64,000 nt of DNA from an uncultured Bacteroidales bacterium (GCA_963789985.1 CAWBNA010000019.1:400464-464463); one strand, 5' to 3'. Positions 26,039 to 48,806 are shown, counted from the first letter of the stretch. Numbers and translations: made by a program. The notes: generated by a model from the sequence alone, not told the origin.

Positions 26039-27436
26039 GTGATGGGAAAAAACTCAAAATCAAAAAGCGGAAAAAACCTCAGAACTGTGATTGCAGTTAT
26101 TTTTGTATTGGCAATTATTGCGGGCATCCCATATTTTTTATTAAGCTATCAGGCAAAGCATCTGGGCATTAAAAGAGGTGAGGTGATTAACAGGGTGTTA
26201 TATAAATCGGGAAACAAGACTATAAAAACTAACGCATCGGCCGGGAATGAGCAGGGAAAGGATGTTGATTTCCTGTCTCCACGGCAGATTGGCCATGGTT
26301 TCACAGAACCCCCGCAGATATCGAATATCGAGGCTGTCGATCTGGATAAGGACGGCCTTCTTGACTTGATCGTCTGCGACTGCAGGAGCAATTCGGTAAA
26401 CTGGATACGGCAATACCCTAAGGGAGTATTCACTGAGACAACTCTTGCATCTGATCTGATAGCACCTGCTCATGCCCAGATCATTGATTTTGACAATGAC
26501 GGTGATAATGATATTATGGTGGCTGTTCTGGGTATGCTTTTTCCGAACAATGATAAGATAGGGTCAGTGGTAATTCTGGAGAACGACGGAACAAACCATT
26601 TTATTAAACACGTGGTTGCAGACAAAATAGCACGGGTTTCAGATGTGAGAGCAGGGGATCTTGACGGTGACGGTGATATGGATCTTGCAGTTGCAGAATT
26701 CGGATATGATGACGGAGAAACGAGATGGATGGAAAACCTTGGTAACTGGAAATTTAAGAGTCATATACTTCAGAGCCTTTCAGGACCCATTAATGTTGAA
26801 ATAGTTGATATTGACAATGATAATGATCTTGATATAGTTTCACTTGTGAGTCAGGAATGGGAAGAAATATACTGTTTCGTAAATGACGGCAAAGGAAATT
26901 TTCAGCCAAAATTGCTTTTTGGCTCAAGCAATGAGGATTTCGGATCAAGCGGCATTTACATTACCGACCTTAACAAGGATGGATATCAGGATATACTTTA
27001 TACAAATGGTGATGCTTTCGATTATATTCCTCCACGCGGACGGCCCTGGCACGGAGTGCAATGGCTCGAGAATAAAGGGAACCTGAATTTTGTCTACCAC
27101 AGGATCTGCAATTTCATGGGAGCATATAATGTGCGACCATGTGATATTGACAATGACGGGGATATCGATCTTTTCGTGGTAAGCGGATTCAACAAGTGGG
27201 AAGATCCCAATGCCCAGAGTTTCATCTGGCTTGAAAATGACGGTAAAATGAATTTTACGATGCACAATATTGCAAGCAACCCGACGCATCTTCTGACTCT
27301 CGCACTCGGTGACTTCAATGGCGACGGATTAATGGATATGGTAACCGGCGGAATGCATACTTACCCGCCATATGACCGGATGGGCAGGATAACCCTGTGG
27401 ACCAATAACGGGAAATTATCAGAGGGGAAACATTGA
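26039..27436 (+). CDS. FG-GAP/VCBS-repeat beta-propeller protein, N-terminally anchored
   Basis: 465 aa with an N-terminal TM. Seven Ca-binding-like repeats: DLDKDGLLD, DFDNDGDND, DLDGDGDMD, DIDNDNDLD, DLNKDGYQD, DIDNDGDID, DFNGDGLMD. Confidence 0.8.
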   Translation: MMGKNSKSKSGKNLRTVIAVIFVLAIIAGIPYFLLSYQAKHLGIKRGEVINRVLYKSGNKTIKTNASAGNEQGKDVDFLSPRQIGHGFTEPPQISNIEAVDLDKDGLLDLIVCDCRSNSVNWIRQYPKGVFTETTLASDLIAPAHAQIIDFDNDGDNDIMVAVLGMLFPNNDKIGSVVILENDGTNHFIKHVVADKIARVSDVRAGDLDGDGDMDLAVAEFGYDDGETRWMENLGNWKFKSHILQSLSGPINVEIVDIDNDNDLDIVSLVSQEWEEIYCFVNDGKGNFQPKLLFGSSNEDFGSSGIYITDLNKDGYQDILYTNGDAFDYIPPRGRPWHGVQWLENKGNLNFVYHRICNFMGAYNVRPCDIDNDGDIDLFVVSGFNKWEDPNAQSFIWLENDGKMNFTMHNIASNPTHLLTLALGDFNGDGLMDMVTGGMHTYPPYDRMGRITLWTNNGKLSEGKH

Positions 27437-27654
27437 TAATCCAGGCATCTATGAATGTTATAGTACTATGTATAACATAGTATTATTAAATAAAAAATAC
27501 CGGAAGAAAGTCGGAACAGCAATTTGCGCCCGGTAATTAACGTTGTTGGTATGTATTATTGGATTGTTAAGAAATCACTGCAATCTTTTCAATTGATTAA
27601 ATAATTTTAACCGAACCAAAGAGATCATTAATATAAATTTAAACTAACCCAAGT

Positions 27655-28062
27655 ATGAAAAGCATAAAATGTTTATTGCCGGTGATTCTCATATTCTTTC
27701 TGAATATTCCGCTGAATGCGCAAAAGCCCGATTCAACGATAAAAGTCAAGAGCATGGTCGTATACCAGGAAAAATATGAGTCCGTGTCACCCAAAAAGTA
27801 CAAGGAGTCGGAGCAGAATTTTGACATAAAAGGAAATCTGATCGAGGATATTTCTTATAAACAGGGTAAAATATCCAGGCATTTCCGTTATGAGTATAAC
27901 TCTGACAACGACAAGATCAAGGAGGAAAAGCTTGATGCTTCCGGAAAAGTGGTAGAGACTTCAGAGTACAAATATGCAAATGGTCTCAGAATAGAAAAGA
28001 CAGTCTATAATGCTGATAAAAAGATCAAATCGAAAAAGACTTACCTCTATTCCATCTATTAG
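27655..28062 (+). CDS. small secreted hypothetical protein
   Basis: 135 aa with a signal peptide (LNIPLNAQ) and repetitive K/Y-rich beta-like segments. No family recognised. Confidence 0.5.
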   Translation: MKSIKCLLPVILIFFLNIPLNAQKPDSTIKVKSMVVYQEKYESVSPKKYKESEQNFDIKGNLIEDISYKQGKISRHFRYEYNSDNDKIKEEKLDASGKVVETSEYKYANGLRIEKTVYNADKKIKSKKTYLYSIY

Positions 28063-28065
28063 CGT

Positions 28066-28848
28066 ATGAATATCAAGCTTATAAATGACCTGTTGTACGT
28101 GTTTTCTCCCATAAACCTCGATGAGCTTGATAAAGTCAGCTTTATGGATCGTATTGACACAAAATACGTTTTCTCGGCCACGAGGCTTCCTGATTTATTG
28201 AAAATACTGAAGGAAGAGTACCGGATACTGGATATAAATGGAGAAAGGATCTTTGCTTACAGTACGATCTATTTTGACACACCTGACCACCAGTTTTACT
28301 TTGAGCATGTAAAAGGTAAGCAGGAAAGGAATAAGCTGAGGTTCAGACATTATGAAATATCAGGAGCTACTTTCCTTGAGATAAAGAAGAGAACACGAAA
28401 GAACCGGACAGTCAAATGGAGGATAACACATGATCCTGACAACAATTTATCTGATGAAAATGCTCAGAAATTTATCAATGAACACCTTGATTGTGACCCC
28501 AATGATCTGTCGCCTGTCATGGAAAACAATTTTAACAGAATGACCTTTGCTGGTATAAATGCTCCTGAACGTGTAACAATAGACGTAAATTTGTCATTTC
28601 TTACACCTGACGGCGCAAAAGCTAAAATCGACGCGGCTGTGATTGCTGAACTTAAGAGTTCCGAAGTAGCTGCAAGATCTCTTTTTTTCAAAATAATGAA
28701 ACAGCTTTCATTCCACCCGACAGGATTCAGCAAGTATTGCGTGGGGAATGCCATTCTTGTTGATCTGCCTAATAAAAATATTCTAAAACAAAATTTACTG
28801 TTACTAAATAAGATTGAAAATGAATACAAACATTTTGGCGCTGCCTGA
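28066..28848 (+). CDS. VTC-domain (polyphosphate-polymerase-like, CYTH superfamily) protein
   Basis: 260 aa. The call rests on remembered family features (FMDRIDTKYVF, RFRHYE, EIKKRT) and pairing with a DUF4956-like gene. Not verified by search. Confidence 0.55.
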   Translation: MNIKLINDLLYVFSPINLDELDKVSFMDRIDTKYVFSATRLPDLLKILKEEYRILDINGERIFAYSTIYFDTPDHQFYFEHVKGKQERNKLRFRHYEISGATFLEIKKRTRKNRTVKWRITHDPDNNLSDENAQKFINEHLDCDPNDLSPVMENNFNRMTFAGINAPERVTIDVNLSFLTPDGAKAKIDAAVIAELKSSEVAARSLFFKIMKQLSFHPTGFSKYCVGNAILVDLPNKNILKQNLLLLNKIENEYKHFGAA

Positions 28849-29524
28849 TGATATAAGTATTGCAGGACTCGACCTGATTGATCCGCCAGGATTCCTGGCA
28901 TTTGTACTGCGATTTGCACTGAATTTTACGGTAATAATGATTCTCGTACGCTGGTTATATTACTCTACGACCAAACGGAAAGATTATCTTTTTACCTATA
29001 TACTGATATCCACGCTTGTCTTTTTGCTCTGCTATCTGCTTGAAAGCGTAAAACTTCAGATCGGTTTTGCACTCGGGCTCTTTGCAATTTTCGGGATCAT
29101 ACGATACAGGACCAACGCGATTCCGATAAAGGAGATGACCTATCTTTTCCTCATCATAGGTGTCTCCGTAATCAATGCCCTCACCAGTGACAAAACAAGC
29201 GTTGTCGATCTTCTTTTTACCAACTTCACAATAATATTCATAACATTCGGACTTGAAAAGCTTTGGTTGCTGAAGAATGAATCATCAAAGCAGGTGCTTT
29301 ATGAGAAGATCGAATTAATCAAGGACGGAAGGTACGATGAACTTGTCAGGGATCTTCAGGAAAGGACAGGCATCAGTAAAATTAACAGGGTAGAGGTTGG
29401 AAAGATCAATTTCCTGAGGGATACATGTGATTTGACTGTTTATTATTTTGAAAAAAAAGGTAAGGAGTACCATTCAGAAGAGAACACGGAAAGCAATAAC
29501 AACAATGACGACGACGACGATTAG
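28814..29524 (+). CDS. DUF4956-like membrane protein with poly-N/D tail
   Basis: 236 aa with several TM helices and a C-terminus ending NNNNDDDDD. Usual partner of bacterial VTC-domain genes. Confidence 0.5.
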   Translation: MKMNTNILALPDDISIAGLDLIDPPGFLAFVLRFALNFTVIMILVRWLYYSTTKRKDYLFTYILISTLVFLLCYLLESVKLQIGFALGLFAIFGIIRYRTNAIPIKEMTYLFLIIGVSVINALTSDKTSVVDLLFTNFTIIFITFGLEKLWLLKNESSKQVLYEKIELIKDGRYDELVRDLQERTGISKINRVEVGKINFLRDTCDLTVYYFEKKGKEYHSEENTESNNNNDDDDD

Positions 29525-29580
29525 GAAAACAGTTCTGGCAATCCCCTGGCTTATATCGTGATGAAGGTTTGAATTTCTAA

Positions 29581-29617: not shown

Positions 29618-30976
29618 ATGAAGACGAATTATTACATCCCATTGGCATTCCTGTGTATTTTCTGCCTGGAACCTTACCTTATTGCTCAGGTCAGCCCTCA
29701 GAGGCAATGGACCGGGTATCGAGGCTGCCTGTCATCCGGAGTTCTTGATAATGCTGATTTGCCGGCTACCTTCAGCTTTGAAAAGATGGAAAATATAAAG
29801 TGGAAGATCAGCATACCTGGAATGGGTATTTCGAGCCCTGTGATCTGGGGCAATAAACTTTTTCTTACATCAGCGATAAGTGATGCCGACAAAGCAGGAT
29901 TCAAGCCCGGCCTGTATGGTGATGTCAGGTCCGTAAACGACTCTTCTGTTCATGAATGGAAAGTATTTTGCATTAATAAAAATAACGGCAGAGTGATATG
30001 GGAAAAAACGGCATACAGGGGTGTCCCAAAGATCAAAAGACATCCCAAGTCGACCCACGCAAACACTTCAGTTGCAGTTGACGGAGAGCATGTTGTGGTG
30101 TTTTTCGGATCAGAGGGACTCTACTGCTATGATTTTGACGGACAACTCCTCTGGCAGAAAAATTTCGGGGTGCTCAAAGCTGCATTTTTCATGATGAAAG
30201 ATGCGGAGTGGGAGTTTGCCAGCTCACCAATAATATATGACGGGAAACTGATAATCCAATGCGATGTCCTGGAAAACTCTTTCCTCGCAGCTTTTGATGT
30301 CAATACCGGGAACGAACTCTGGAGGAGTGTAAGAGACGACTATCCCGCATGGAGCACTCCCAATATCTATAAGAACAAAGATAAGGCTTATGTTGTCGTA
30401 AACGGGTTCAGACACATGGGCGGATATGATCTTCTTACCGGCAAGGAGATCTGGAGAATGTCGGGAGGAGGAGACATCCCTATCCCCACACCGGTAATCG
30501 GAGATGACCTTATCTATTTTAACAGTGCTCACGGGAAATTCTCCCCCATAATTGCTGTAAGGAAAGATGCATCGGGCGACATAACACTGCCAGACAAGGA
30601 AACATCAGGTCAGTTTGTGCAATGGAGCAAACCAAGAGGAGGCTCCTACATGCATACATTACTTTTGTACCGTAACAGGCTTTACAATGTAAACTGGAAC
30701 GGAATGATCAACTGCATCGATCCATCCTCAGGCAGGGAAATATTCAATGCAAAACTTGGTAAATCGTCAAGCTTTATTGCCTCTCCTGTTGCTTCAGACG
30801 GAAGAATATTCATTGTCGATGAAACGGGAACCGTTTACATCATTCAGGATGGAGATGCCTTCAGGGAACTTGCCGAAATTCCGATGGATGAGATCTGCAT
30901 GACCGCACCTGCAATAACCGACGGTCTGATCTTCTTCAGAACACAGAACCACCTTTATGCAGTAGGTAAGAAATAA
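29618..30976 (+). CDS. PQQ/BamB-like beta-propeller repeat protein (paralog P1), secreted
   Basis: 452 aa with a signal peptide, post-signal QWTGYRG motif and repeated xxGxxxW blade motifs (NNGRVIWEKT, TGNELWRS, TGKEIWRM). Confidence 0.8.
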   Translation: MKTNYYIPLAFLCIFCLEPYLIAQVSPQRQWTGYRGCLSSGVLDNADLPATFSFEKMENIKWKISIPGMGISSPVIWGNKLFLTSAISDADKAGFKPGLYGDVRSVNDSSVHEWKVFCINKNNGRVIWEKTAYRGVPKIKRHPKSTHANTSVAVDGEHVVVFFGSEGLYCYDFDGQLLWQKNFGVLKAAFFMMKDAEWEFASSPIIYDGKLIIQCDVLENSFLAAFDVNTGNELWRSVRDDYPAWSTPNIYKNKDKAYVVVNGFRHMGGYDLLTGKEIWRMSGGGDIPIPTPVIGDDLIYFNSAHGKFSPIIAVRKDASGDITLPDKETSGQFVQWSKPRGGSYMHTLLLYRNRLYNVNWNGMINCIDPSSGREIFNAKLGKSSSFIASPVASDGRIFIVDETGTVYIIQDGDAFRELAEIPMDEICMTAPAITDGLIFFRTQNHLYAVGKK

Positions 30977-30989: not shown

Positions 30990-33900
30990 TTATTCTCTCC
31001 TTATCCCGGCTATTATATCATCCTTTTTTATAGCCCGTACCGAAAAGACCAATGATGTGATGCCTGTAGTTATAATGAGGATCATCATTATTACAATTGT
31101 TCTCCAAGGTATCGCGTTTCCATTCATCATTGACGGTCTGGTGGCAATCAGAGCTGAAACAAGTCCAGCCGCTGTTCCTGACATCAGTATCATGGCATGC
31201 TCGCCAAGAACAATTCTTCTGATCGTTCTCAGAGAGAATCCTGCAGCCATCATCAGTCCGAAATCGCGCTTTCTCTGGTTAAAATTCCTGATAAGGATGA
31301 ATCCCAGCCCGGCGACACCCAGTATCAGGCCAATCGCTCCAAGAACCGTGAAAACAGACAGATAGGTATTTGTAACGACAAAAAAAGAAGCAAGCCTGTC
31401 GGCAGCAGGCTCAAAATGAGCTCCAAAATCCGATAGTCTCTCCGTCAGGGCATTCTTATAAATTTCTGCCATTTTCGGGTTTCCGTCAACCAGGAAAATC
31501 TGACTTCCGGCGACTGAAGGAAAATATTTAATGAAGTTTTTATTGCCTATTATAACATATCCCTGGAATACAGATGATCTCAATCCGGCGCAGATTATTA
31601 CGTTAAGCATCTGTCCGCTTTCACTTCTTATTTTCAGTGTATCACCCGGCTTGATTTTCAGGCCATACTGAAGCACAGTCTGGTCGGCTATTCCGTAAAT
31701 AGTGCCTTCTCCCGGAGAATAATCCAGTGTTGACCAGGGGTTTGTTTTCTTTATGCCCTCCATTTCAGAAGCAAAAGAAAATGAACCTTTACTTATGAAG
31801 TGCTCAGGATCGACCCCGAGAAGGGGAGGAGTTGTAATATGATTAAGGTTAAGGCAACTTGCATCATTACCTGAAGTTTTCCTTGCCTGCACAAGTGAAA
31901 GATCTTTCAGTTCCTGGTCATCCAGGCCATATTCATTTCTGCCTTCTGAACTGTTAAGATCGTCCCTTTCCGGCAGGGACGATTCTCCCCAGAGAAGAAA
32001 TCCGCCGGTGCCACCTGAAGGCTGAAGCATGCTGTTGGTTAAATTCATCCTGTTAACACCGGTTATGATCACGGCAAAGAGCCCGGCAGCAAGAAAAATG
32101 ACCGGAGCGACAGCCTGGGAAGGATAAAAGGAGAAATAACAGCCTGATATCTGTTTTGCCTTTCTGAAACTGAAAATTCCTGTTCTTTGATTACCGATAA
32201 AATATTGCCTGGTCAGAAGGATCATTGTTGAAAAAACAAATATTCCGGCACAAAATGAAAGCAATGTTGAATTGCGGGTAAGAATAAATGACAGTACTGT
32301 CGATAAAAGAGTAAGAGCAGCAAAAACAATCAGGAAAATAAGATTCTTCCCGGCTGAAGGCTTTTCTGTTTTACCTGTTTCGGGCTTGTTCAGATATTTC
32401 AAAAACCGGCCCGACTTTATTATCAGTATTAAAAATATTATAATGAAAGAAATTGCAAATCCTGTCAGAAGTGACCACGGGTCAAACTCTGAAACCAGGG
32501 TGTTTGTCTGCACAGCACCATGCCATACTGAATTAAGAGCTTTGATTGTCAGGGCATTAAAAATTCCTCCCGCAAAGGTTCCCGTTATGGTTCCGCAGAA
32601 CGCGATCATTGCTGTTTCGTAAATAAGTATTTTTTTGATCTTACGGTTTGCAAATCCAAGGGAAAAGAGAGTATTGACCTGTTCTTTTTTTGATTCAAAA
32701 AAGGTCGATACAACAAGAATGAGGAGGATCAGGGATGAGAGTAGAATGAAGAAGCCAAGGCCCAGAAAAAGTGTGCTGAAATCAACACTTTCATTTGCCG
32801 CTTTTTCCAATTCTGCCGGAAGATCCATAATTGTAAAGCCTGCCTTTTCAGGGTCAATGGATCGGGTAAGTTTTGCAAGTATCTCATTTTTACTCACATC
32901 ACTGCTGAAACGGACTGAGGTAACCGGACCAAAATTATTTCCCCATAATTCCCTGCCTTTTTCGTAGTTTATGAAAGCCTTTGGGGTACCGCCGGACTTT
33001 TTCCAGTATTCCTCATCCTTCGGCCGGATCCTGTCGAAATGGATAGTGGTGCCGGCATCCCAGCTTGTACATGATTTCCTTCCTGCAATTCCTGGAAATT
33101 CAGGCATCAGCAGCGAATCAGACCAGATGCCTTCCATTGGTACCACCTTACTGACAATAAAATTCATATTCTCTTCCCTGAGGTGATTCATCGGATCAGG
33201 GGAATACCATGTAATGTTTATGGTGTCGCCTTCCCGTGCAGACAGGTCATCAGCAATCCATCTGTTTATTACAATTCCGTTATCAGCCGGAATGCCTTTA
33301 TACAACAAAGGGTCAAGAGCAGAAATAAAAGAATAAGGCGTCATCTTTTTATCATGGGAAAAGCTGTTGGCCAGGTAAGTTAATACAGGATGTGGTTGCA
33401 ACCCGAGCTTTGCTATTTCATCGACCTGAACTTTGTCGATAAATATTCTGTCAGAAATAAGTTCATACCCTTTTGTTTCCGGAATAAAACGCAGTGAAAG
33501 TCCTATATCTCCAGGTTTCAGCTCTTCCCGAAGGCTCTTGTAAATGTACGGTACTGAAATTCCTTTCCTGTTTTTAAACAGCAGCCTGTTGACCTTTGGG
33601 ATACTATCCTGTTTGTCTGTCAGATCCTGACGGCGGACAAAAATATTCAGCGGAGTTATCTGACTGATACCCAGAGAAAAATTGCCCGACCTTCCGGAAG
33701 ACATAATTGCTCCGGTTTTAAATACCACTGATTCAGTAGTACCATTTGCCGGAGAGAAAGGGGCATCTGCGGGAATGTCACTCAGGGCATTGAACCGGAT
33801 TATCAGGTCAGTTCCCACATTCAGCCCAAGGTAAGCAGCAAGTCGTTCATTAACTGCAACTTCACCTTTTTTGATATTCATACCTTCAATTCCCTGAAAT

Positions 33901-34259
33901 GAAAAGAAGTTATTATCCACTGCATAGATTTTCAATATGGGAGATGTCTGCCCTGTTGTAAAATTCTGGCAATAACCCTCTGTTTCAAGGACTCCGGCGC
34001 ATTTAATGCCGGTCCTTGATTCCATCCTTCCTGAAAGCGAAGGATCAAAATAACGAATTCCTGAACTGACAACGATCCCCGTATTTCCTGTTTTTTCCGA
34101 GGAGGTTTTTTTCAGGCTGCTCCTGACCGATTTGCCGGTCATTAACGATCCTGTTATTACAGCAGTGAGAATAATTATTATGATGATCTGATAAGCAGCA
34201 CCTTTCAGATTGTGCGATATTGACCTTATGGTTATATGGAAAAGCGACAGCTTCATCAT
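30990..34259 (-). CDS. very large FtsX-family ABC permease (two FtsX modules)
   Basis: 1089 aa with TM clusters at the N-terminus, middle and C-terminus separated by large extracytoplasmic domains. Adjacent to a MacB/LolD-type ATPase. Confidence 0.8.
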   Translation of the reverse strand: MMKLSLFHITIRSISHNLKGAAYQIIIIIILTAVITGSLMTGKSVRSSLKKTSSEKTGNTGIVVSSGIRYFDPSLSGRMESRTGIKCAGVLETEGYCQNFTTGQTSPILKIYAVDNNFFSFQGIEGMNIKKGEVAVNERLAAYLGLNVGTDLIIRFNALSDIPADAPFSPANGTTESVVFKTGAIMSSGRSGNFSLGISQITPLNIFVRRQDLTDKQDSIPKVNRLLFKNRKGISVPYIYKSLREELKPGDIGLSLRFIPETKGYELISDRIFIDKVQVDEIAKLGLQPHPVLTYLANSFSHDKKMTPYSFISALDPLLYKGIPADNGIVINRWIADDLSAREGDTINITWYSPDPMNHLREENMNFIVSKVVPMEGIWSDSLLMPEFPGIAGRKSCTSWDAGTTIHFDRIRPKDEEYWKKSGGTPKAFINYEKGRELWGNNFGPVTSVRFSSDVSKNEILAKLTRSIDPEKAGFTIMDLPAELEKAANESVDFSTLFLGLGFFILLSSLILLILVVSTFFESKKEQVNTLFSLGFANRKIKKILIYETAMIAFCGTITGTFAGGIFNALTIKALNSVWHGAVQTNTLVSEFDPWSLLTGFAISFIIIFLILIIKSGRFLKYLNKPETGKTEKPSAGKNLIFLIVFAALTLLSTVLSFILTRNSTLLSFCAGIFVFSTMILLTRQYFIGNQRTGIFSFRKAKQISGCYFSFYPSQAVAPVIFLAAGLFAVIITGVNRMNLTNSMLQPSGGTGGFLLWGESSLPERDDLNSSEGRNEYGLDDQELKDLSLVQARKTSGNDASCLNLNHITTPPLLGVDPEHFISKGSFSFASEMEGIKKTNPWSTLDYSPGEGTIYGIADQTVLQYGLKIKPGDTLKIRSESGQMLNVIICAGLRSSVFQGYVIIGNKNFIKYFPSVAGSQIFLVDGNPKMAEIYKNALTERLSDFGAHFEPAADRLASFFVVTNTYLSVFTVLGAIGLILGVAGLGFILIRNFNQRKRDFGLMMAAGFSLRTIRRIVLGEHAMILMSGTAAGLVSALIATRPSMMNGNAIPWRTIVIMMILIITTGITSLVFSVRAIKKDDIIAGIRRE

Positions 34260-34268
34260 CGCAGGTTT

Positions 34269-34946
34269 TTACAGCTTTTTCCCCGGAAATAGTTTCCCTT
34301 CTGAAAGGGTCAGCTGAACTCCCATTTTATTTGCAAGATCCTTTGAATGTGTTGCAAGGAGAAGAGTGATCCCGTAGTCTTTGTTCATCCGGACAAGAAG
34401 ATCTCCAAGAGCGTTGGTGTTCTTTTCATCAAGCGATCCTGTAGGTTCGTCTGCCAGCAGGAGAGAAGGCTTGTTTGCAAGGGCCCTGACAAGTGTGGCG
34501 CGCTGAGCCTCGCCTCCCGAAATCTGAAGGGGATATTTATCTGCCAGTCCTGAAATACCAGTCGTTTCCATCAGCTTCAATGAATCATTGACCTTTTGCC
34601 TGAACTCGGAATCTGGCGTTTTTGATGCAATAAGAGGAAGTATTATATTTTCCCTGACGGTAAGATAAGGAAGAAGAAGATGATCCTGGAATACGAAGCC
34701 GATGTTTTTGTTCCTGTAGCGGGCTGATTCATCAGAGTCATAATTAAGGATTGAGACACCCCTGAACAGTACATCACCGCTGTCGGGCCTGTCGAGCAAC
34801 CCTATAATATTCAAAAGGGTTGTTTTTCCTGAACCCGACGGACCTGACACTGAAACCGAATCACCTTCATTAAGAGTAAGGTTAAGATCACTCAGAACAA
34901 TACCTCTCTGGTGATAAGATTTTGACACATTATTTAACTGTAACAT
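34269..34946 (-). CDS. ABC transporter ATP-binding protein (LolD/MacB type)
   Basis: Start moved to ATG 34946 (MLQLNNVSKSY). Walker A GPSGSGKTT, signature ISGGEAQR, Walker B LLLADEPT. Confidence 0.9.
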   Translation of the reverse strand: MLQLNNVSKSYHQRGIVLSDLNLTLNEGDSVSVSGPSGSGKTTLLNIIGLLDRPDSGDVLFRGVSILNYDSDESARYRNKNIGFVFQDHLLLPYLTVRENIILPLIASKTPDSEFRQKVNDSLKLMETTGISGLADKYPLQISGGEAQRATLVRALANKPSLLLADEPTGSLDEKNTNALGDLLVRMNKDYGITLLLATHSKDLANKMGVQLTLSEGKLFPGKKL

Positions 34947-41009: not shown

Positions 41010-42712
41010 TAAAGGTTATTTCTTCCTCTTATATAAATGTTCTTGTCCGAAAAGGCAGGAGTACAGTCAGCGGGCTCACCTAAAGGAGATTCAGATACAA
41101 GTTTGAATTCAGGCCCTGCATTTACAATATGCATCACACCGCTTCGGTCGAGCATCCACACTTTATTATCTGCAATAACAGGCGATGCATAAAACTGATC
41201 CGTAAAGTAGTGTGTCCAGAGTGTATCGCCCTTCTGTGAATTATAACAAGCCACATCCCCGGTGCCCGTGCAAAGGAACAGGTAATTGTCGGTTGCAACC
41301 GGACTGGAAACATCTGGTGTGAAAGTATTATCCTGCCATACTATTGAAGGACCAGGACCGGGTTTTACTGCTGCCAGGCGTGAATAATCAGTAACTGCAT
41401 AAACCAGGCTGCTGTTGACCGCAAGAGATGGGGCAACATCCCCTGTCAGTACCTCTATCGACCAGAGAGCTTTACCGGTACGCGGATCAAATGAAGTGAC
41501 TTCAGGATTACCGTTAATAATCACCTGCGGCACCCCATTGAAATTTGCCAGCACAGGCGATGCCCAGGTCGCTTTTCCACTCCTTGGCGTTTCCCATTTC
41601 AATTCCCCTGAGTCTGTATCAAAGCCCATCATTGAAATCTTTTCAGTAGCATCGAATTTGACAATCAGTAATCCTTCAAAAATTACAAGTGAACAGGAAT
41701 ACCCATAAGCGTTTTTCGGAATCCCTATGTTTTTTGCCCATTTTTTATTCCCGTCCATACTTAAGCATATCAGGTTTCCGTTCGCAAAGATGGCGCATAT
41801 GGATTTTCCGTCTGTGGCGGCTGAAGGTACAGCAATGCCTGCATCGCTGCTGGTTTCCGGAGGCACTGAAGGCTCTCCCGTGATGCCTGAGGCGGACGAA
41901 CTCCATTCTATCTTTCCTGAATTTTTATCTATGCAATAGACCTCACATGATTTACCATCCGAGCCTGTCACGAAAAGTTTGTCGCCCCATATAACCGGGG
42001 AGCTTTTACCATTTTTGGGAATCTGAATCTTCCATTTGATGTTTTTGCCATTTTCACCGTTCCATTCGGTAGGGAACCCTGAACCTCCCGCGATTGCCCT
42101 GCCGTCCTGGCCTCTGAAAAACGGATAGTTTACAGGATCAGGTTTGTAGGTGTCGGCTTTTGAAGCAAGATTTTTCTTTTTTCCTGTTTTCTTCTCAATC
42201 TTTTCTTCAGCTCTTACCGTGTTTCTGCCTGAAAGGTCGGGAAGGTTGTTCCTCAGAACAAACGAGGTGATTATGCCACCTACGGTCAGTACAGCTACTG
42301 ATCCTGCCAGATATCTTGCATATTTTGCATTTGTATTCACCTGGTCCTGATGCTCACCCGGAACTGATGGAATTGTCCTTTCACTTCCTGCAATTATTCT
42401 CTGACATAAAATAAAGATTGCAGCTCCGGCCAGCAACAGGTACGAACCGGTTTCAACCTGCCGCCTTGATGAAAAGTATGCCTTCCTTGCCATAAGGTCG
42501 AGCGCTCTTATCTGTTCAGCCCTGGCAGTATTTTCAACATCCTTGTCATATTCTTCTTTAATAGTTACAATTGCCTGATTATCCAGCGGATCCATGGTTT
42601 TTAACTGAATCAGACTGTAAAACATAGTTAAGGCAACGACCAGTGTAAATACACCTGCACCTATACTGATTCCTCTGATTGTCTTAATATCTTCTTCGTC
42701 AGGCTTTTTCAT
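40991..42712 (-). CDS. membrane-anchored PQQ/BamB-like beta-propeller protein (paralog P3)
   Basis: 573 aa with three predicted N-terminal TM helices, then NYPFFRG and propeller blades (SGKIEWSS, SGELKWET, TGKALWSI, KGDTLWTH). Overlaps both neighbouring genes. Confidence 0.75.
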   Translation of the reverse strand: MKKPDEEDIKTIRGISIGAGVFTLVVALTMFYSLIQLKTMDPLDNQAIVTIKEEYDKDVENTARAEQIRALDLMARKAYFSSRRQVETGSYLLLAGAAIFILCQRIIAGSERTIPSVPGEHQDQVNTNAKYARYLAGSVAVLTVGGIITSFVLRNNLPDLSGRNTVRAEEKIEKKTGKKKNLASKADTYKPDPVNYPFFRGQDGRAIAGGSGFPTEWNGENGKNIKWKIQIPKNGKSSPVIWGDKLFVTGSDGKSCEVYCIDKNSGKIEWSSSASGITGEPSVPPETSSDAGIAVPSAATDGKSICAIFANGNLICLSMDGNKKWAKNIGIPKNAYGYSCSLVIFEGLLIVKFDATEKISMMGFDTDSGELKWETPRSGKATWASPVLANFNGVPQVIINGNPEVTSFDPRTGKALWSIEVLTGDVAPSLAVNSSLVYAVTDYSRLAAVKPGPGPSIVWQDNTFTPDVSSPVATDNYLFLCTGTGDVACYNSQKGDTLWTHYFTDQFYASPVIADNKVWMLDRSGVMHIVNAGPEFKLVSESPLGEPADCTPAFSDKNIYIRGRNNLYCISAI

Positions 42713-43985
42713 CAGCAGTATTATTATTTATGTGCACCGGGCAATACCGGAAACATCGTCCGCAACTGTAGCATTTGCCTTTATGCGGCACATAACCGGT
42801 TCTCCTTGACCTGGTGGTAAGAGAAACGAGGCTGAGTCCGAACGAAAGTCCGAGGAAAAGCCCGACCCATAAAGATCCGTTCCTGAACCGTCCGGCTATT
42901 TTCAGCTCTTCTTCAAACAATTCCTTTTCGGTCTTTCCTGCTTCCCTGAAAGCCACAGCGGCCTTTGAAACAGCGGGAATGCCTTTTTCCTTTTCTGCCC
43001 TGATCTCCCTTGCCAGCTGAACTTTGCTGTTAAGCCCTGAAAGGGCAGGAGCGAGGTTCCTGAACAGGATTGCTCCTCCGGCAGCGAACAGAGGTATAAA
43101 CAGGATATATATGATAAATCTCCTTCTTTCCATGCGAGGTTCTCCGGAAGGACGGGAAACGTCGGATGGTAATATTGCATCATAAGGGCATACATCTTCA
43201 CAGAGACGGCAGTTTGTACATTCTGCGGGAGTAATTGTAAGATGCCTTGAAGAGAACCGTGAAAATATATTAAGAAGGACACCGTACGGACAGAAGTATC
43301 TGCAATACGGCCTGTTTATGAATATGCCTGCCACAAGCAGCAATGAGCCGAATATTATCATTGTATAAGGCGCATCGAGGCGGAAAATACCCACAAAAGG
43401 ATCGTACCTGCAGATCAGAAACTGGCTCCCGGTAGCTGCCGAAAGCACAGACAGACCAAGATAGACAAACGGGACAGAGATCATTACCGATTCGACAGCT
43501 TTGGGCAGCTTCACAGGACGAAAGCCTGTAAGCTCCTGGATTGCACCGAACGGACAAACCCCGGCACAGAAGACCCTGCCGAATGCCAGAGCAAATATTA
43601 ATGGTATGATAAAAAACAAAAGCGCAGTAAGCGGAATGGCATAATTCTTATTGAACAGCGCAAGGGCGACATTCTGGAGTGATCCGACTGAACAGATACA
43701 TCCTTCCCTGTAAAACCCGAAATATGCGAGCGAGAATACAGAAAGCCAGACAATCCCTTCCCTTGAACGTTTTTTCAGCGCTAACCATGATGCAAGCGAT
43801 AACGCGCCAACGAGAACTGCCAGGTCGATATAATTCCACACCGGGGATCTCTGGAGAGGCAGCTGGTGGTCGGGATAGACATAGCCTGACTCAAATTCCG
43901 GACGCGGAAACCGGTCCTGCGCCACGAGGACTGCATGCCATCCGATCAGCAGGAAAATCAAAATATATGGTAGTTTTTTCTTCAC
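42699..43985 (-). CDS. NapH/MauN-type integral membrane 4Fe-4S protein
   Basis: 428 aa. Two CX3CP motifs (GRVFCAGVCPFG, RPYCRYFCPYG), two ferredoxin motifs (CTNCRLCEDVCP, CYSCGRCFRYCP) and multiple TM helices. Confidence 0.8.
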   Translation of the reverse strand: MKKKLPYILIFLLIGWHAVLVAQDRFPRPEFESGYVYPDHQLPLQRSPVWNYIDLAVLVGALSLASWLALKKRSREGIVWLSVFSLAYFGFYREGCICSVGSLQNVALALFNKNYAIPLTALLFFIIPLIFALAFGRVFCAGVCPFGAIQELTGFRPVKLPKAVESVMISVPFVYLGLSVLSAATGSQFLICRYDPFVGIFRLDAPYTMIIFGSLLLVAGIFINRPYCRYFCPYGVLLNIFSRFSSRHLTITPAECTNCRLCEDVCPYDAILPSDVSRPSGEPRMERRRFIIYILFIPLFAAGGAILFRNLAPALSGLNSKVQLAREIRAEKEKGIPAVSKAAVAFREAGKTEKELFEEELKIAGRFRNGSLWVGLFLGLSFGLSLVSLTTRSRRTGYVPHKGKCYSCGRCFRYCPVHINNNTADEKA

Positions 43986-43994: not shown

Positions 43995-44148
43995 TAATTA
44001 ACCCACCCCTGACCCCTTCAGGGAGGGGAACTTTATGATAATGCTTTTGCTTTTTACTTTTGCCTTTTGTCTTTTGTCTTTAATTAACCCACCCCTGACC
44101 CCTCCCAGGAGGGGATCATCAGGTTTTTACTTTTATCTTTTGTCTTTA
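43995..44148. repeat. composite intergenic element, two tandem copies (TTAATTAACCCACCCCT + GC hairpin + CTTTTG-periodic T-rich tract)
   Basis: Copy 1 is 43995-44080 and copy 2 is 44081-44148. Both begin TTAATTAACCCACCCCTGACCCC and end in (C)TTTTG repeats. Confidence 0.9.
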
Positions 44149-44696
44149 GGCAAATACTGCATCTTATATGGCACCCTGGATATAGCTTCTGACGGGCAGT
44201 TCCTTGCTATCGCGCATTCATTGCAACGAACACAAAGACCCTGGTTTATCTGCAGATAAAGAGATCCGTTGCCGAAATCATTGCATCCCTTGACACATTT
44301 TCCGCATGCGTCGCACAGCTTCTCATTTATTGTATATTCAAAATAGGGTTCTTCCACAAATTTCCTTGTTATAGCTCCCGTGGGACACATCTGGTTTTCG
44401 GCCCCGGTACTGATAGTCGTAACGCCCTGCCTTAGGAATCCGCCGCACAGATCGCAGTATCCGCACATCACAAAAGCGTGGACACACTTTACAGCTGATG
44501 GTGTCAGCACACACTTTGTCTTACATTGCCCGCACTGCGTACACTTATGAGGATCGATCTGCCATACATTTCCTGACGCAGATACTTTCCCCGACAGGAA
44601 TATTGGTACTGCTATGACAGGAGCTGCGATAAGAATCCTTCCTGCATTGCGTACAAAATCCCGTCGTGACTGATATTTGTTTTTATCTTCCTTCAT
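44133..44696 (-). CDS. Tat-exported polyferredoxin (NapG-like)
   Basis: 187 aa with twin-arginine signal SRRDFVRNAG followed by a hydrophobic stretch. Cys clusters CTQCGQCKTKC, CGYCDLCGG, CDACGKCVKGC and CVRCNECAIARNCP. Confidence 0.8.
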   Translation of the reverse strand: MKEDKNKYQSRRDFVRNAGRILIAAPVIAVPIFLSGKVSASGNVWQIDPHKCTQCGQCKTKCVLTPSAVKCVHAFVMCGYCDLCGGFLRQGVTTISTGAENQMCPTGAITRKFVEEPYFEYTINEKLCDACGKCVKGCNDFGNGSLYLQINQGLCVRCNECAIARNCPSEAISRVPYKMQYLPKDKR

Positions 44697-44708: not shown

Positions 44709-44909
44709 TTAATACTTGCTGCAGTCAATTCTCCCTCTGCAAATGCCATTACCAGGACATGTCGAACAGTCTTTCGTCGCAACAACCCTGTTGCCAAGAA
44801 AATATGCAACAAATGCCAGCAAACCCAGCAATCCGGCCTGAACCGATTTTACAATGAAGCTTTTTCTGTCGATCTGCATAGGATTAATTTTAAAATTATT
44901 TTTTCCCAT
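44709..44909 (-). CDS. small single-TM protein with C-terminal 4-Cys motif
   Basis: 66 aa with a possible Tat-like RK motif (DRKSFIVKS), a TM (AGLLGLLAFVAYFL) and the tail CSTCPGNGICRGRIDCSKY. It sits 12 nt upstream of the Tat ferredoxin gene. Confidence 0.45.
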   Translation of the reverse strand: MGKNNFKINPMQIDRKSFIVKSVQAGLLGLLAFVAYFLGNRVVATKDCSTCPGNGICRGRIDCSKY

Positions 44910-44987: not shown

Positions 44988-45905
44988 TCATAATTTTCTT
45001 TTAAATAAATAAAGTGTCGAATCAGCGCTGTTTATGGCATAAATTGTTTTGCCATCAGCTGAAGCGACATCCAGCGGTACGGAAGGAACAAAATTATTAT
45101 TTGACGAAACGAATTCAATAAATTCTCCTTCAGGCCCCAGGATTTTTATCCTGTTCAAACCTTTCTCTGCAGTCACAATACCCTGCGGTATAAGTGCAAA
45201 ATGCGCAGGATTGCAGCAACCGCAGAACTTGCCCGGCGCTGTTCCCGGTTCACCGAATTCGGCAATCTTTTTCCCGTCCGTCGTCCATTTCTCGATCCTG
45301 TGATTCCCTGTATTTGCAATGAAAAGAGTCGAACCGGAAAGAGCGACATCAAAATAAGGGCTGGGTATCAGGAATTTCTCATCAGACTGTCCTATCATGG
45401 TCTTCAGTTCCCCGTTCTTTTTCAGCAAGAAGACCTTTTTGCTTCCTGCATCAGCAAATGCAATAACATCTTTCCCGGCCGTAACGGAAGTAATGAGGCT
45501 ATTATCTTCATATGGTCCCCATTCGGCAATTAATTTTCCTCCTGTTGAAGCAAGCAGAATCGTTCCGGCAGTCGAGGCGAAGATTGTATCGCCTGAAACA
45601 GCAAGTGATGTAATCTTCGAATCTGTTTTAAGGTTCCATTTTTCACTAAGGTCAGTGTTGAGCGACCTTATAAATGAATTGCCTGCCAGAAAAACAGTTC
45701 CATCGTCTGAAACAGCTACAGAAGAAGTTTTTCCTCCCGTCAAATCTATTTTTCTGACAACTTCCCATCTGTCATAATAAGAAGTTTCCTGTGAAGCTGC
45801 TTGTTCACTTTTTTTGATTTTTATATTTGATGCATCATAAATGATATATCCCATAAATGCCAGGATAATCAATAATGCAAGGAAAGCTGTAAGTTTCTTA
45901 TTCAT
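44988..45905 (-). CDS. NHL-repeat six-bladed beta-propeller protein, N-terminally anchored
   Basis: Start moved to ATG 45905 (MNKKLTAFLALLIIL), giving an ATGA overlap with the upstream gene. NHL-like repeats (LFIANTGNHRIEKW, AEKGLNRIKILGPEG). Unusual Cys cluster KFCGCCNP. Confidence 0.7.
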   Translation of the reverse strand: MNKKLTAFLALLIILAFMGYIIYDASNIKIKKSEQAASQETSYYDRWEVVRKIDLTGGKTSSVAVSDDGTVFLAGNSFIRSLNTDLSEKWNLKTDSKITSLAVSGDTIFASTAGTILLASTGGKLIAEWGPYEDNSLITSVTAGKDVIAFADAGSKKVFLLKKNGELKTMIGQSDEKFLIPSPYFDVALSGSTLFIANTGNHRIEKWTTDGKKIAEFGEPGTAPGKFCGCCNPAHFALIPQGIVTAEKGLNRIKILGPEGEFIEFVSSNNNFVPSVPLDVASADGKTIYAINSADSTLYLFKRKL

Positions 45906-47368
45906 TGGTTTTGTTTTTTTCCTATGAAAAGGCAAAGCAAATTTCTTGAATCCCTCATAACAAGGTAGTTGCCTGCTAATGCCATCGGTCCCCAGGCCTC
46001 AACCCCTTTAATTATCCTGTGCTGTGTGATCAGTGAAGCCTGTGATCCGTCAATCCTGAACAAATATAAATTTGCATTATCATCCAGCAAAAGCAATTTG
46101 TCATCTTTCATTATATAAGGTCCCAGACCTCTTCCGAATCTCATGTCCTTTCCGCTGCTCCAGAGAGGCTTTTTCAGGTCCGACCTGTTGTAGCAGACAA
46201 GTTGCTTCTTCAGCGGCCCTGCATTCTCAGGCATTACTGTCCATATAAAATCGCCCTTCGGTATAGGGGTCTGCTGGTCGCTTGAAATTCCCTCCATTGG
46301 CTTGTGTGATTCCAGAAGGGTTGCTGAATAAGCTGATCCGTTCAGGCTGATCCTTATTCTGGCGCCTCCTGCGCCGTAACTTCCAAATACCGCGATCTCA
46401 TTATTGCCAAGGTAAACAGGTGATGCGGCTGTAGTTGCCGGGTTCCATTCTTTTGTTTTCCAAAGCAGCTTTCCTGTGTCGTCACCATCAGCGGCCACGC
46501 CAACAACTCCTCCAATGGCATTATAAACGTACATTCTCCTTCCATGTATTTCCATTGGTATAATTGATCCATGCGACATTCTCAAAGAATCAGGATTAGG
46601 GGTCTTCCATATTACCTTCCCGTCAGAGCATCTGACGCCAATCATAAGCGCTTTCCCTCCGGGCGCAAGTACCGCTACATCATTGTCAATAAGCGGACAT
46701 TGACCCGTATAAAAATCCGGAGTGATTCTCCCTTTTATTTTACCTGCAATTCCAAACTCCTTCTCCATATCGATCCTCCAAAGGAGGTTTCCATTAAGCG
46801 GATCAAGACACATTACATGCGATCTTGGGCCAATTGAGACAAGATACTTATCAGTCACTGCCGGTATTGTTCTTGAGTATCCATGGTTACGCTTGAGATC
46901 AACGTTGTACCACCTTCTCCAGAGTTCCAGCCCTGACTTGAGTGAAAAGCAGCGCAGCATGTCGGCTTTCTTTCTTTCATTGTAATCCATTAGATAAACC
47001 CTTCCATTCAGCACTGCCGGACCCGCATAACCTTCACCGAGCGTTACTTTCCACATAACAGGAGTACCGGCTGTATCCCAGGATTCTGCAATTTCAAAAG
47101 TGTCTTTACTGATGTTATCAAAATCACTTCCCCTGAATCTTGGCCAGCTTCCGGGGACCAATCCATCAAATGCAGCCAGAGTGTCAAAAAACTCACCAAT
47201 AATTACACTGTCAGTCCTTGGCACAGTTTTAGGACGGTTATCCATGCCGGGAACGCGCAGAACGATATCAGCGGGATAATGATTACCGGCAAACCACCAG
47301 ATCAGGGCCCCTGATAAAAGAACGGCAGTGATGCCTGTGAACAGTGTATTATTTTTCTTAAGTGTCAT
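45902..47368 (-). CDS. PQQ/BamB-like beta-propeller repeat protein (paralog P4), N-terminally anchored
   Basis: 488 aa with an N-terminal TM, then SWPRFRG. Blade motifs SGLELWRR, NGNLLWRI, DGKVIWKT, TGKLLWKT. Confidence 0.8.
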   Translation of the reverse strand: MTLKKNNTLFTGITAVLLSGALIWWFAGNHYPADIVLRVPGMDNRPKTVPRTDSVIIGEFFDTLAAFDGLVPGSWPRFRGSDFDNISKDTFEIAESWDTAGTPVMWKVTLGEGYAGPAVLNGRVYLMDYNERKKADMLRCFSLKSGLELWRRWYNVDLKRNHGYSRTIPAVTDKYLVSIGPRSHVMCLDPLNGNLLWRIDMEKEFGIAGKIKGRITPDFYTGQCPLIDNDVAVLAPGGKALMIGVRCSDGKVIWKTPNPDSLRMSHGSIIPMEIHGRRMYVYNAIGGVVGVAADGDDTGKLLWKTKEWNPATTAASPVYLGNNEIAVFGSYGAGGARIRISLNGSAYSATLLESHKPMEGISSDQQTPIPKGDFIWTVMPENAGPLKKQLVCYNRSDLKKPLWSSGKDMRFGRGLGPYIMKDDKLLLLDDNANLYLFRIDGSQASLITQHRIIKGVEAWGPMALAGNYLVMRDSRNLLCLFIGKKQNQ

Positions 47369-47498
47369 ACACCATCAGAAATCTCTATATCGTTTTTACC
47401 ATTAAATGGTTATCGAACAGATGGAAATACAATTCTTTTCGAAACCTGCCGAACGGTGTTCATTCGCACGGGCCTTGAGGCAAAAAATGTCACAGGAA

Positions 47499-48806
47499 TC
47501 ACCTGGCAACTCTGACACACTTTAACTGGTTTTGATCCCTGATAAGGAGCTTACCGTCCGCAAGCGCAAGGGGTGCCCAGTTTTGAGTCGAAAATCTTGG
47601 ATCTGCACCTGATGCTACAACAAGCAACTTTGCTGATGCAATGGGCTTAAAGGCTGATGGATCGGGCTCAATAAGGTACAAATTGTTACTGCCGTCGGTG
47701 CTGATCAGCAACCCATCGGCGAGAACCGAGCCACCCTTATCAAATAACGGAGATCTCCCTGTTTTCCATTTAATCTGGCCGTCAATACTCATACAAACCA
47801 GGCCGTCTTTTCTTTCGTTGGTTGTATATTGAGCATAAAAATAGCCGTTATAAAGAACCGGAGGTTGTGTATGCGCACCAAAATCAGCATTTTTATAAAG
47901 TTCTGTAACACCGTAGCTGCCATCCGCTTTTCTTTCAACCTTTATCATTGCAGCTCCGGCCTGGTATCCGCCTGTAAGCAGAACCCTGCCTTCACCGGCA
48001 TCAACTGCACTTGGCACCGGAATACGACATTGCCAGTTCGTATATTCCCAAAGGATCTTACCCGTAAGCGGATCAATTCCAACGACCTTACCTCCAGTGC
48101 CATTTTGTCCGAAGCCACCACCTTCTGAAGCGGTTATCATAACAATGTGATCCTTTCCGCCAACTTTTACAAACGACGGGCTGACATATCCTACAGGACC
48201 AAGAGCCGGAGTTTTCCATTTCACATTGCCGGTAAGTTTTTCATAAGCTACAACTCCCGCCTGTGGCGTCTGTGAAGCCAGAATGACCAGATCGCCATAA
48301 ACCAAAGGACACTGGGTAATTGCCCATCTCGGAATTTCACCACCGCCGAAATCAGTCCAGACGTTCTTTTTCCAGATTGGCTTGTGCGTGTTGATATCTA
48401 TACAATAAAGGTTTCCGTAAGGACCGCATGAATAAATCCGGTTACCGTCCAATGCCGGTACGCTTCGCGAGCCGGGAAACTGAACAGACCCTGGAGCATC
48501 ATAGCTGAACTTCCAAAGTTCTTTACCATTTGAAAGGTCAAAACATCTCATAATATCGCCAGCCTGGTCATTTCTGTCCAGTAAATAAACCTTACCGTCT
48601 TTGATAACAGGTCCGCCAAAACCGATTCCCACATTAGCCGTCCATAAAACTTCCGGACCCTGCTGAGGCCAGGAACGCATAATACCTTTCTGGTCCGACG
48701 CACTATTTCTGTTGGGTCCAAGATACTGGGGCCAGTCTTGGGAGTAGACATTTGTAATTCCAACTAATAAAACAGCCATCAAAACATACATCTTACTCTG
48801 TTTCAT
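47499..48806 (-). CDS. PQQ/BamB-like beta-propeller repeat protein (paralog P5), secreted
   Basis: 435 aa with a signal peptide, then DWPQYLG. DIMRCFDLSNGKELWKF parallels P4 DMLRCFSLKSGLELWRR. Further blades TGNVKWKT, TGKILWEY, DGQIKWKT. Confidence 0.8.
   Translation of the reverse strand: MKQSKMYVLMAVLLVGITNVYSQDWPQYLGPNRNSASDQKGIMRSWPQQGPEVLWTANVGIGFGGPVIKDGKVYLLDRNDQAGDIMRCFDLSNGKELWKFSYDAPGSVQFPGSRSVPALDGNRIYSCGPYGNLYCIDINTHKPIWKKNVWTDFGGGEIPRWAITQCPLVYGDLVILASQTPQAGVVAYEKLTGNVKWKTPALGPVGYVSPSFVKVGGKDHIVMITASEGGGFGQNGTGGKVVGIDPLTGKILWEYTNWQCRIPVPSAVDAGEGRVLLTGGYQAGAAMIKVERKADGSYGVTELYKNADFGAHTQPPVLYNGYFYAQYTTNERKDGLVCMSIDGQIKWKTGRSPLFDKGGSVLADGLLISTDGSNNLYLIEPDPSAFKPIASAKLLVVASGADPRFSTQNWAPLALADGKLLIRDQNQLKCVRVAR

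Follow-up and report, generated by a model that had tools for sequence, protein, structure and literature searches.

A 64,000-nucleotide stretch of DNA from an uncultured Bacteroidales bacterium (GCA_963789985.1, CAWBNA010000019.1:400464-464463; hereafter, the window) poses the question of what five beta-propeller proteins of the PQQ_2 family, P1 to P5, are doing in close proximity to one another and among genes for iron–sulfur (Fe-S) proteins. The preliminary description of the region read them as a paralogous family expanding locally and diversifying around one function. Instead, the propeller genes diverged from one another long ago and encode separate subunits of a single conserved gene cluster. 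The core of this cluster keeps one gene order across the order Bacteroidales and is met again, in partly fused form, in at least one further phylum. As to function, we favor with moderate confidence a reading in which the propellers form the periplasmic working end of a heme-free Fe-S chain leading from NADH to the periplasm, with P4 and a neighboring NHL-like propeller as its candidate active center. The window has a GC content of ~42% and lies on contig C19 of a 5.1-Mb genome that is 99.6% complete and whose closest relatives are all metagenome-assembled genomes of uncultured Bacteroidales. The propellers and the genes among which they lie are as follows.

29618-30976, plus strand: P1, an exported PQQ_2 propeller, convergent with FtsX2 and downstream of orf135-VTC-DUF4956
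30990-36324, minus strand: GT4 glycosyltransferase, ABC ATPase, and a 1089-amino-acid (aa) double-FtsX permease (FtsX2), the conserved 3′ end of the operon
36411-37529, minus strand: P2, a soluble, exported, regular PQQ_2 propeller of eight-blade type
37526-38593, minus strand: NuoG' (355 aa), a NuoG-N-terminal/HoxU-like Fe-S protein without the catalytic domain
38574-41009, minus strand: NuoEF (811 aa), a NuoE-NuoF fusion flavoprotein with C-terminal 2x[4Fe-4S], the cytoplasmic NADH module
40991-42712, minus strand: P3, three transmembrane helices followed by a PQQ_2 propeller
42699-43985, minus strand: NapH-like membrane polyferredoxin (428 aa)
44133-44696, minus strand: TatFd (187 aa), a NapG-like ferredoxin exported by the twin-arginine translocation (Tat) pathway
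44709-44909, minus strand: small 66-aa membrane protein with a four-Cys tail, between NHL and TatFd
44988-45935, minus strand: NHL-like six-bladed propeller (315 aa) with a single transmembrane anchor
45902-47368, minus strand: P4, an eight-bladed PQQ_2 propeller with a single transmembrane anchor
47499-48806, minus strand: P5, an exported PQQ_2 propeller of the variable upstream clade

All five open reading frames (P1 on the plus strand, P2 to P5 on the minus strand) lie where the preliminary description had placed them, and its account of their shared features holds well. Each passes the gathering cut-off of the PQQ_2 model PF13360 (27.6 bits), with scores of 68.6, 138.9, 89.0, 57.0, and 78.8 bits for P1 through P5, and P2 additionally reaches 176 bits on PF13570. 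The repeated blade motifs are real, with 4-7 G...W occurrences per protein against ~1 in shuffled sequences, as are the export signals (Sec-type signal peptides in P1, P2, and P5, one transmembrane helix in P4, and three in P3). The heptapeptides QWTGYRG, EWPVFRG, NYPFFRG, SWPRFRG, and DWPQYLG all occur and fall into a single alignment column. However, the same N-terminal WPxFRG strand occurs in five of the six PQQ_2 paralogs elsewhere in the genome, the sixth (C10:142587, on contig C10) having a degenerate form, so that it is a family-wide PQQ_2 signature and not one specific to the cluster. The extended similarity noted between P4 and P5 (DMLRCFSL... aligned with DIMRCFDL...) amounts to 27% identity over 428 residues (E 3e-42).

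Clustering of these genes is unlikely to be fortuitous: five of the 11 PQQ_2 genes of the 5.1-Mb genome fall within 19.2 kb, for which a rough chance probability is ~1e-6. On the minus strand the genes run, 5′ to 3′, FtsX396, ABC225, P5, P4, NHL-like, 66-aa Cys4 protein, TatFd, NapH-like, P3, NuoEF, NuoG', P2, GT4, ABC, and FtsX2. P4 overlaps NHL by 34 nt, NapH-like overlaps P3 by 14 nt, P3 overlaps NuoEF by 19 nt, and the start of P2 overlaps the stop of the NuoG' Fe-S gene (ATGA). Overlaps of 4-34 nt at the P4/NHL junction and throughout the NapH-like-P3-NuoEF-NuoG'-P2 series are a signature of translational coupling. The propellers are functionally tied to the Fe-S genes, start/stop overlaps linking P3 and P2 with NapH-like, NuoEF, and NuoG'.

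The arrangement is ancient and stable. The order P4-NHL-TatFd-NapH-P3-NuoEF-NuoG'-P2-GT4-ABC-FtsX2 is the same in 80 loci (numbered with the prefix L) as far as their contigs reach, and all 38 loci with full flanks are colinear, each core gene being present in 34-38 of them (P2 in 35; GT4, ABC, and FtsX2 in 35-37). In a sample of 301 genomes spread evenly over the order, 50 have P4 as a single-copy gene; by genus, it is found in 41 of 208. Twelve loci from other families hold the same order at identities of 41-49% for P4, 34-43% for P3, and 27-36% for NHL, and the GT4-ABC-FtsX2 end is retained even in the distant loci L098-L108, L109, and L110. Orthologs of P3 (57-79% identity, membrane domain included) occur in at least 164 species-level genomes, and the N-terminal membrane domain of P3 is highly conserved. 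At 71% mean column identity, P4 is on par with TatFd, NapH, and NuoEF; P3, P2, and NHL are less conserved. A gene of 59-71 aa stands at the position of the Cys4 protein also in L001, L002, and L112. Upstream of P4, relatives usually carry one to three further propellers of subfamily B, where the window has P5 instead. In related genomes the propellers are thus clustered, not scattered. The system is carried by abundant uncultured Bacteroidales of soils, fens, sediments, and digesters, and full-text literature searches found no description of this cluster, yielding only the general framework of NapH-like conduits.

How long the propellers have been separate was read from a maximum-likelihood tree of 103 sequences, comprising the five of the window, the six others of the genome, orthologs from 8 near and 7 distant loci, and P1 orthologs from 13 further genomes, with branch support from the Shimodaira–Hasegawa-like approximate likelihood ratio test (SH-aLRT). 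P1, P2, P3, and P4 each form their own clade at 100% SH-aLRT, on stem branches of 0.7-1.9 substitutions per site. Sequences assigned to several families of the order are found in the P2, P3, and P4 clades; the P1 rows carry no family assignment. These separate, fully supported clades and the fixed operon positions together place the duplications that produced P1-P4 before the radiation of the order, and each of the four has since been kept as a distinct subunit. Pairwise BLAST comparisons detect P1 and P3 as 26% identical (E 4e-48), P4 and P5 as 27%, and P1 and P3 as ~22% identical to P5, with P2 weakly related to the rest. Only the P5 clade is young, and its recent copies are dispersed, not local: P5 groups with its paralogs at 78% and 64% identity, which sit elsewhere in the genome among unrelated neighbors. 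A few of the upstream genes join this clade, whose sister, at 96% support, is P4. A third clade holds the variable propellers that precede P4 in other genomes.

The six PQQ_2 paralogs outside the cluster sort into the same subfamilies, with neighbors such as fucosidase, esterase, AhpC, or MsrA/MsrB with an aldo-keto reductase. Their contexts share no gene families with the window cluster, and hence there is no second copy of the system in this genome. One of the six, C10:142587-143975, is the sole member in the genome of the clade that usually lies just upstream of P4 in relatives. It belongs to a same-strand string (C10:141727-146649) encoding an exported MsrA-like protein, an exported MsrB (SelR), an aldo-keto reductase, the propeller itself, and a TPR protein, which hints at a link of that propeller to the repair of oxidative damage in the periplasm.

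Natural gene fusions point to the cluster encoding one physical assembly. A search for the P4 family among 1.84 billion representative proteins returned 243 clusters at E<=1e-30. Among the natural fusions, P4 is joined to NHL in P0127, P0143, P0144 (whose cluster has a member annotated as Planctomycetota), and P0148; a subfamily-B propeller is joined to NHL behind a cleavable signal peptide in P0233; and P3 is joined to P4 in P0153. In L109, a contig of 70% GC, a P4-NHL fusion has ABC-FtsX2 upstream and TatFd downstream, followed by a 980-aa protein of which residues 10-400 align to NapH-like and residues 404-971 to full-length P3. This junction would link the cytoplasmic C-terminus of NapH to the cytoplasmic N-terminus of P3, in agreement with their predicted topologies. 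A whole operon with a P4-NHL fusion is found in yet another lineage (L110). Just upstream of ABC-FtsX2 and the P4-NHL fusion, L109 also encodes (1447-3951) an 834-aa protein with matches to the Cu-binding MopE domain and to NosD-like beta-helices, a possible hint of copper handling.

Among the Fe-S proteins, TatFd has a twin-arginine RRDF motif, Fer4 matches, and 17 conserved Cys (97-100% in 69 orthologs). The NapH-like protein matches PF12801 and has two CX3CP motifs (C140/C144-P and C228/C232-P) and two CxxCxxCxxxC 4Fe-4S motifs with conserved Cys; at 59.7 bits against the cut-off of 213 on TIGR02163, it is NapH-like, not NapH. A Tat-exported poly-[4Fe-4S] ferredoxin next to a membrane protein with CX3CP and ferredoxin motifs is the make-up of a pair of the NapGH/NosGH/MauMN type. 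In MauMN and NosGH, a NapH-family polyferredoxin is combined with an exported ferredoxin, MauMN being accompanied by MauB. More generally, NapH-like conduits are repeatedly paired with the propeller oxidoreductases NosZ, NirS, and ExaA (PMC8238504), and in view of this recurrent partnership the present cluster is most economically read as having a propeller as its terminal enzyme.

Among the propellers, P4 is the most conserved and is the candidate active or ligand-binding subunit. Its AlphaFold2 model (predicted local distance difference test score, pLDDT, 88) has a transmembrane helix at residues 5-27 and eight blades. Structural comparison matches the model best to tetrathionate hydrolase (6l8a/7cqy, E 2e-18) and then to BamB, and a sequence search against the Protein Data Bank returns no match for P4. 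Invariant across the order are C140, H162, M186, C187, C224, C247, M264, and H266, with H184 at 97%. C140, C187, and C224 are common to P4 and P5; the His residues, M186/M264, and C247 are specific to P4. In 87 wider P4 representatives, H266 is kept in 93%, H162 in 87%, C224 in 78%, and M264 in 77%. In the strand map of the model, H162, C224, and H266 fall 2-4 residues before the innermost strands of blades II, III, and IV, which would situate them where the central channel opens, as active-site residues of propeller enzymes usually are. The invariant His and Met of P4 map at or near loops of the top face. By comparison, the conserved residues of P3 comprise several Cys and an acidic set, and those of P2 comprise C199 only. 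A site like the CuZ of NosZ was rejected for P4, which has only two or three conserved His and no NosZ Pfam match, and no nos accessory genes were found.

Next to P4, the NHL propeller with a CGCCNP cluster proposed earlier does have a six-bladed NHL fold, with CGCCNP at residues 238-243. The Pfam NHL model (PF01436) does not match the window protein at E<0.01, and a faint match is on record only for the fusion P0148; nonetheless, a profile of 64 orthologs matches solved NHL domains at E 7e-21. The AlphaFold2 model (pLDDT 90.4) comprises one transmembrane helix and 24 strands arranged as six four-stranded blades, and its best Foldseek matches are the NHL domains of TRIM2, Thin, and Brat, at a template modeling (TM) score of 0.77 and a root-mean-square deviation of ~3.2 A. 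The orthologs examined in the order invariably have C240 and C241, a vicinal pair within CGCCNPAH, as well as P243, E257, K258, and R262, and in NHL fusions of other lineages the C-C-N-P and E-K-G...R-[VI]-K motifs are likewise retained.

From these components the favored electron path may be sketched. Cytoplasmic NADH would be oxidized at the NuoEF/NuoG'-like module, and electrons would pass to the cytoplasmic clusters of the NapH-like protein, physically joined to P3 via the three-helix membrane domain of the latter, and then to the exported four-cluster ferredoxin TatFd. The membrane-tethered P4 and NHL would bind, and probably reduce, a periplasmic or membrane-bound substrate, for which the candidate residues are His162/Cys224/His266 at the channel mouth of P4 (with Met186/Met264) and the vicinal Cys240-Cys241 of NHL. 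P2, P1, and the variable upstream propellers, P5 included, could serve as soluble accessory binding or scaffold modules, and GT4 and ABC-FtsX2 may act on the same envelope molecule. A bolder formulation, which we hold only tentatively and consider rather unlikely in full, is that P4 and NHL constitute a previously unrecognized propeller-based periplasmic reductase, with a His/Cys/Met metal site at the channel mouth of P4 and a redox-active vicinal disulfide in NHL, operating without heme, molybdenum, pyrroloquinoline quinone (PQQ), or flavin at the end of the heme-free chain from NADH, with P3 built onto the NapH-like protein; this would be a new envelope redox machine in about one-fifth of Bacteroidales genera and in other phyla.

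Several observations weigh against the proposed electron chain. Outside the order, C224 is kept in 78% and H184 in 63%, and neither residue is therefore universal. To our knowledge, the crossing of electrons through a heme-free NapH-like protein has not been established for any member of the family. Transmembrane conduction by NapH-like proteins is itself termed putative (PMC8238504). The NuoEF module is not adjacent in L109, and NADH may thus not be the universal donor. The fusions P0143 and P0144 keep a hydrophobic helix between P4 and NHL (absent in P0127, P0148, and P0233), which together with the N-terminal anchor predicts that P4 and NHL are separated by the membrane, a topologically puzzling arrangement. 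Furthermore, in L111 (9624-13618) a BlaI-like repressor gene is followed by one for a 1205-aa BlaR1/M56 protein whose sensor part is P3-like and P4-like, and no Fe-S genes were found nearby; this suggests that the propeller pair has been reused there as a signal receptor and can serve purely as a ligand sensor. Finally, some lineages (L112, and upstream in L020/L016/L017/L001) have genes for polyprenyl synthase, prenyltransferase-like, radical SAM, and squalene-hopene-cyclase (SHC)-like proteins before the operon.

It is these last observations that nourish the most serious alternative, in which the propellers are non-catalytic binding or scaffold modules that pass a lipid or glycolipid of the envelope, possibly a polyprenoid that neighboring genes make or glycosylate, to the MacB-type ABC-FtsX2, the redox chemistry being carried out by the Fe-S proteins alone or serving only the modification of that lipid. 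GT4 and ABC-FtsX2 are conserved in the operon as much as the propellers are; BamB, a scaffold, is among the closest folds; and the BlaR1-P3-P4 fusion implies ligand sensing. In L112 (4346-16266), P4 is fused to an SHC-like domain and has genes for a polyprenyl synthase and a radical SAM protein next to it; among the 80 Bacteroidales loci, six carry an SHC-like gene upstream of the operon. Against this, the conservation of P4 and its specific set of His, Met, and Cys resemble an active site more than a docking surface, and a chain dedicated to moving electrons from NADH to the periplasm, with an exported ferredoxin of four clusters, has to deliver them to an acceptor. On balance we consider such a non-catalytic role unlikely. 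A terpenoid lipid in particular was downgraded as the general substrate, which it cannot be given that the genome of the window has no SHC-like gene.

Much less probable is that P2 is a functional analog of BamB, dedicated to outer-membrane protein assembly and merely housed in the operon. P2 is a regular, soluble, exported PQQ_2 protein of eight-blade type and has the best score of the five on the BamB model TIGR03300; however, that score (147.9 bits) is far under the cut-off of 285.2, and the other four propellers reach at most 69. P2 has no lipobox, and indeed no [LVIMF][ASTVIGL][GAS]C occurs within the first 45 residues of any of P1-P5. Its start codon shares nucleotides with the stop codon of a cytoplasmic Fe-S gene, and its orthologs travel with the operon in only ~17% of the genomes of the order, which does not fit a housekeeping role. 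The closest solved relatives of P2 are designed "Cake" propellers and 3hxj, with BamB only at 1e-13 to 1e-15. A search of the whole genome found no stretch above the BamB equivalog cut-off (TIGR03300/NF008351). The preliminary description was therefore right that none of the five is a housekeeping BamB, and no clear BamB ortholog is to be found among them. In this lineage, the name "outer membrane protein assembly factor BamB" that databases give to these proteins is a misnomer, and it conceals a large conserved system.

No more tenable is the proposal that the propellers are dehydrogenases with PQQ or another quinone cofactor, which would oxidize a substrate in the periplasm, with the electrons flowing inward to NAD+. 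Its attractions are weak matches to PQQ dehydrogenase models and the vicinal Cys pair of the NHL protein, a feature that methanol dehydrogenase also has. Pairings of ExaA with NapH-like proteins in other bacteria point the same way (PMC8238504). Yet P1-P5 score at most 82 bits on the PQQ-dependent dehydrogenase models TIGR03075 and TIGR03074, whose cut-offs are 480 and 833, so that by family thresholds the five are neither BamB nor PQQ quinoproteins. The reduction of NAD+ from a quinoprotein would, moreover, be thermodynamically unfavorable. A search for PqqC gave no match in the 99.6% complete genome, with a model that was also silent in control genomes.

The recent local expansion around a single function that was first envisaged is scarcely credible: five PQQ_2 genes do lie within 19 kb with a common N-terminal motif, and P4 and P5 are adjacent and related, but identities of at most 27%, separate order-wide ortholog clades, fixed and colinear operon positions, the family-wide nature of the motif, and the dispersal of recent P5-clade duplicates all speak against it. 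What stands of that view is that the propellers are clustered in one system and that none is BamB; what falls is their recent local origin.

Around the core, P1 is a frequent satellite: of 25 operon genomes, 15 have an ortholog of it (64-74% identity), which in 13 of these lies against the FtsX2 end, with the block orf135-VTC-DUF4956-P1 in 7 of the 13; P1 is tandemly duplicated in three operon genomes and persists as a pseudogene remnant in one more. P5 belongs to the younger, dispersing clade; in only 7 of 38 loci is a gene upstream of P4 a true ortholog of it, and the trio P5-FtsX396-ABC225 recurs in L056. The remaining genes in the vicinity are listed below.

23961-25907, minus strand: 648-aa cupredoxin-polyferredoxin
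26039-27436, plus strand: FG-GAP/VCBS-type propeller with an N-terminal transmembrane anchor
27655-28062, plus strand: orf135
28066-28848, plus strand: VTC
28814-29524, plus strand: DUF4956
48937-50824, minus strand: accessory ABC225/FtsX396 pair, with P5

The FG-GAP propeller is genuine, matching PF13517 (FG-GAP_3) at E 2e-41 over six stretches, and six DxDxDG calcium-type loops, together with a DIDNDND variant seen by eye, are consistent with the seven repeats attributed to it. Its inclusion in a propeller expansion cannot be upheld: the fold is unrelated, and only 9 of the 25 operon genomes have an ortholog, which in just two of them lies next to the operon. It was rejected as a cluster member and is a neighbor only. 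Together with the 648-aa cupredoxin-polyferredoxin, which it adjoins in L091, it appears from gene order to form a separate two-gene module.

The cluster is flanked by rhamnose genes on one side and by a TetR-HlyD-MFS-OEP efflux set (50995-55680) on the other. This efflux set stands beside the operon or P1 in other genomes as well (e.g., L079 and L083), as does, in varied arrangements, the group of polyphosphate-type genes orf135-VTC-DUF4956 (27655-29524); a functional link or no more than common ancestry could account for their recurrence. The interval 36207-36405, between P2 and GT4, is a 100-bp tandem duplication (2.0 copies, 91% match), inside which the longest GT4 reading frame (464 aa) begins; given that orthologs measure ~431 aa, the true start is probably further downstream. 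A complete operon of the Bat aerotolerance type (MoxR, DUF58, BatA, BatB, TPR, BatD, and TPR/SH3; 186-8512) lies ~16 kb upstream of the cluster.

What was vaguely described as a paralog expansion thus becomes a defined multi-subunit biochemical target, with H162, C224, and H266 of P4 and C240-C241 of NHL as the residues to address. Should the proposed electron path be true, it would represent a cytochrome- and quinone-independent delivery of low-potential electrons outside the cytoplasm in anaerobes, and would offer a handle on how NapH/NosR-type proteins pass electrons across membranes.

Comparison with known systems brings out both the familiar and the distinctive in this cluster. BamB (YfgL) of E. 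coli shares the Pfam family PQQ_2 and the eight-bladed fold with the propellers, and matches the P4 model at a TM-score of ~0.7. The cluster propellers, however, lack a lipobox, score far below the equivalog cut-offs, occur as multiple distinct copies inside an Fe-S redox operon that only ~17% of the genomes of the order carry, and in three cases are anchored in the inner membrane by transmembrane helices. The best structural match to P4, the tetrathionate hydrolase of Acidithiobacillus ferrooxidans (TetH/Af-Tth, 6L8A/7CQY), is a cofactor-less, eight-bladed, PQQ_2-like periplasmic enzyme and demonstrates that this fold can be catalytic without PQQ; it is nevertheless only 14-16% identical to P4, at TM-scores of ~0.55-0.63 and with no match at the sequence level, and operates without Fe-S partners. 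The TRIM2, Brat, and Thin propellers have the same six-bladed NHL fold as the cluster protein, which has a Cys-Cys-x-Pro invariant among its orthologs and differs in being transmembrane-anchored and exported and in falling short of the Pfam NHL model. On the cytoplasmic side, the 811-aa NuoE-NuoF and 355-aa NuoG-N-like proteins share their domain make-up with Bfu-type modules (HydABC, NfnABC/Stn), but have here no hydrogenase, formate dehydrogenase, or GltD partner and are coupled to membrane and periplasmic proteins instead.

The closest parallel is with NosZ-NosGH/NosR, NirS, ExaA, and MauB-MauMN, in which a NapH-family polyferredoxin is likewise encoded with an extracytoplasmic beta-propeller enzyme. 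In contrast to those systems, the present cluster has no signature of Cu, heme d1, PQQ, or tryptophan tryptophylquinone, and neither a flavin mononucleotide-binding domain nor ApbE; its donor is an NADH flavoprotein of NuoEF/NuoG' type and not quinol; and it deploys four to eight different propellers where they have one, in the company of a GT4/MacB-type partner. What is new relative to the established theme of a NapH-like conduit with an extracytoplasmic propeller enzyme is therefore the combination of non-interchangeable propellers, the absence of a cofactor signature, an NADH flavoprotein as donor, and the GT4/MacB-type partner.

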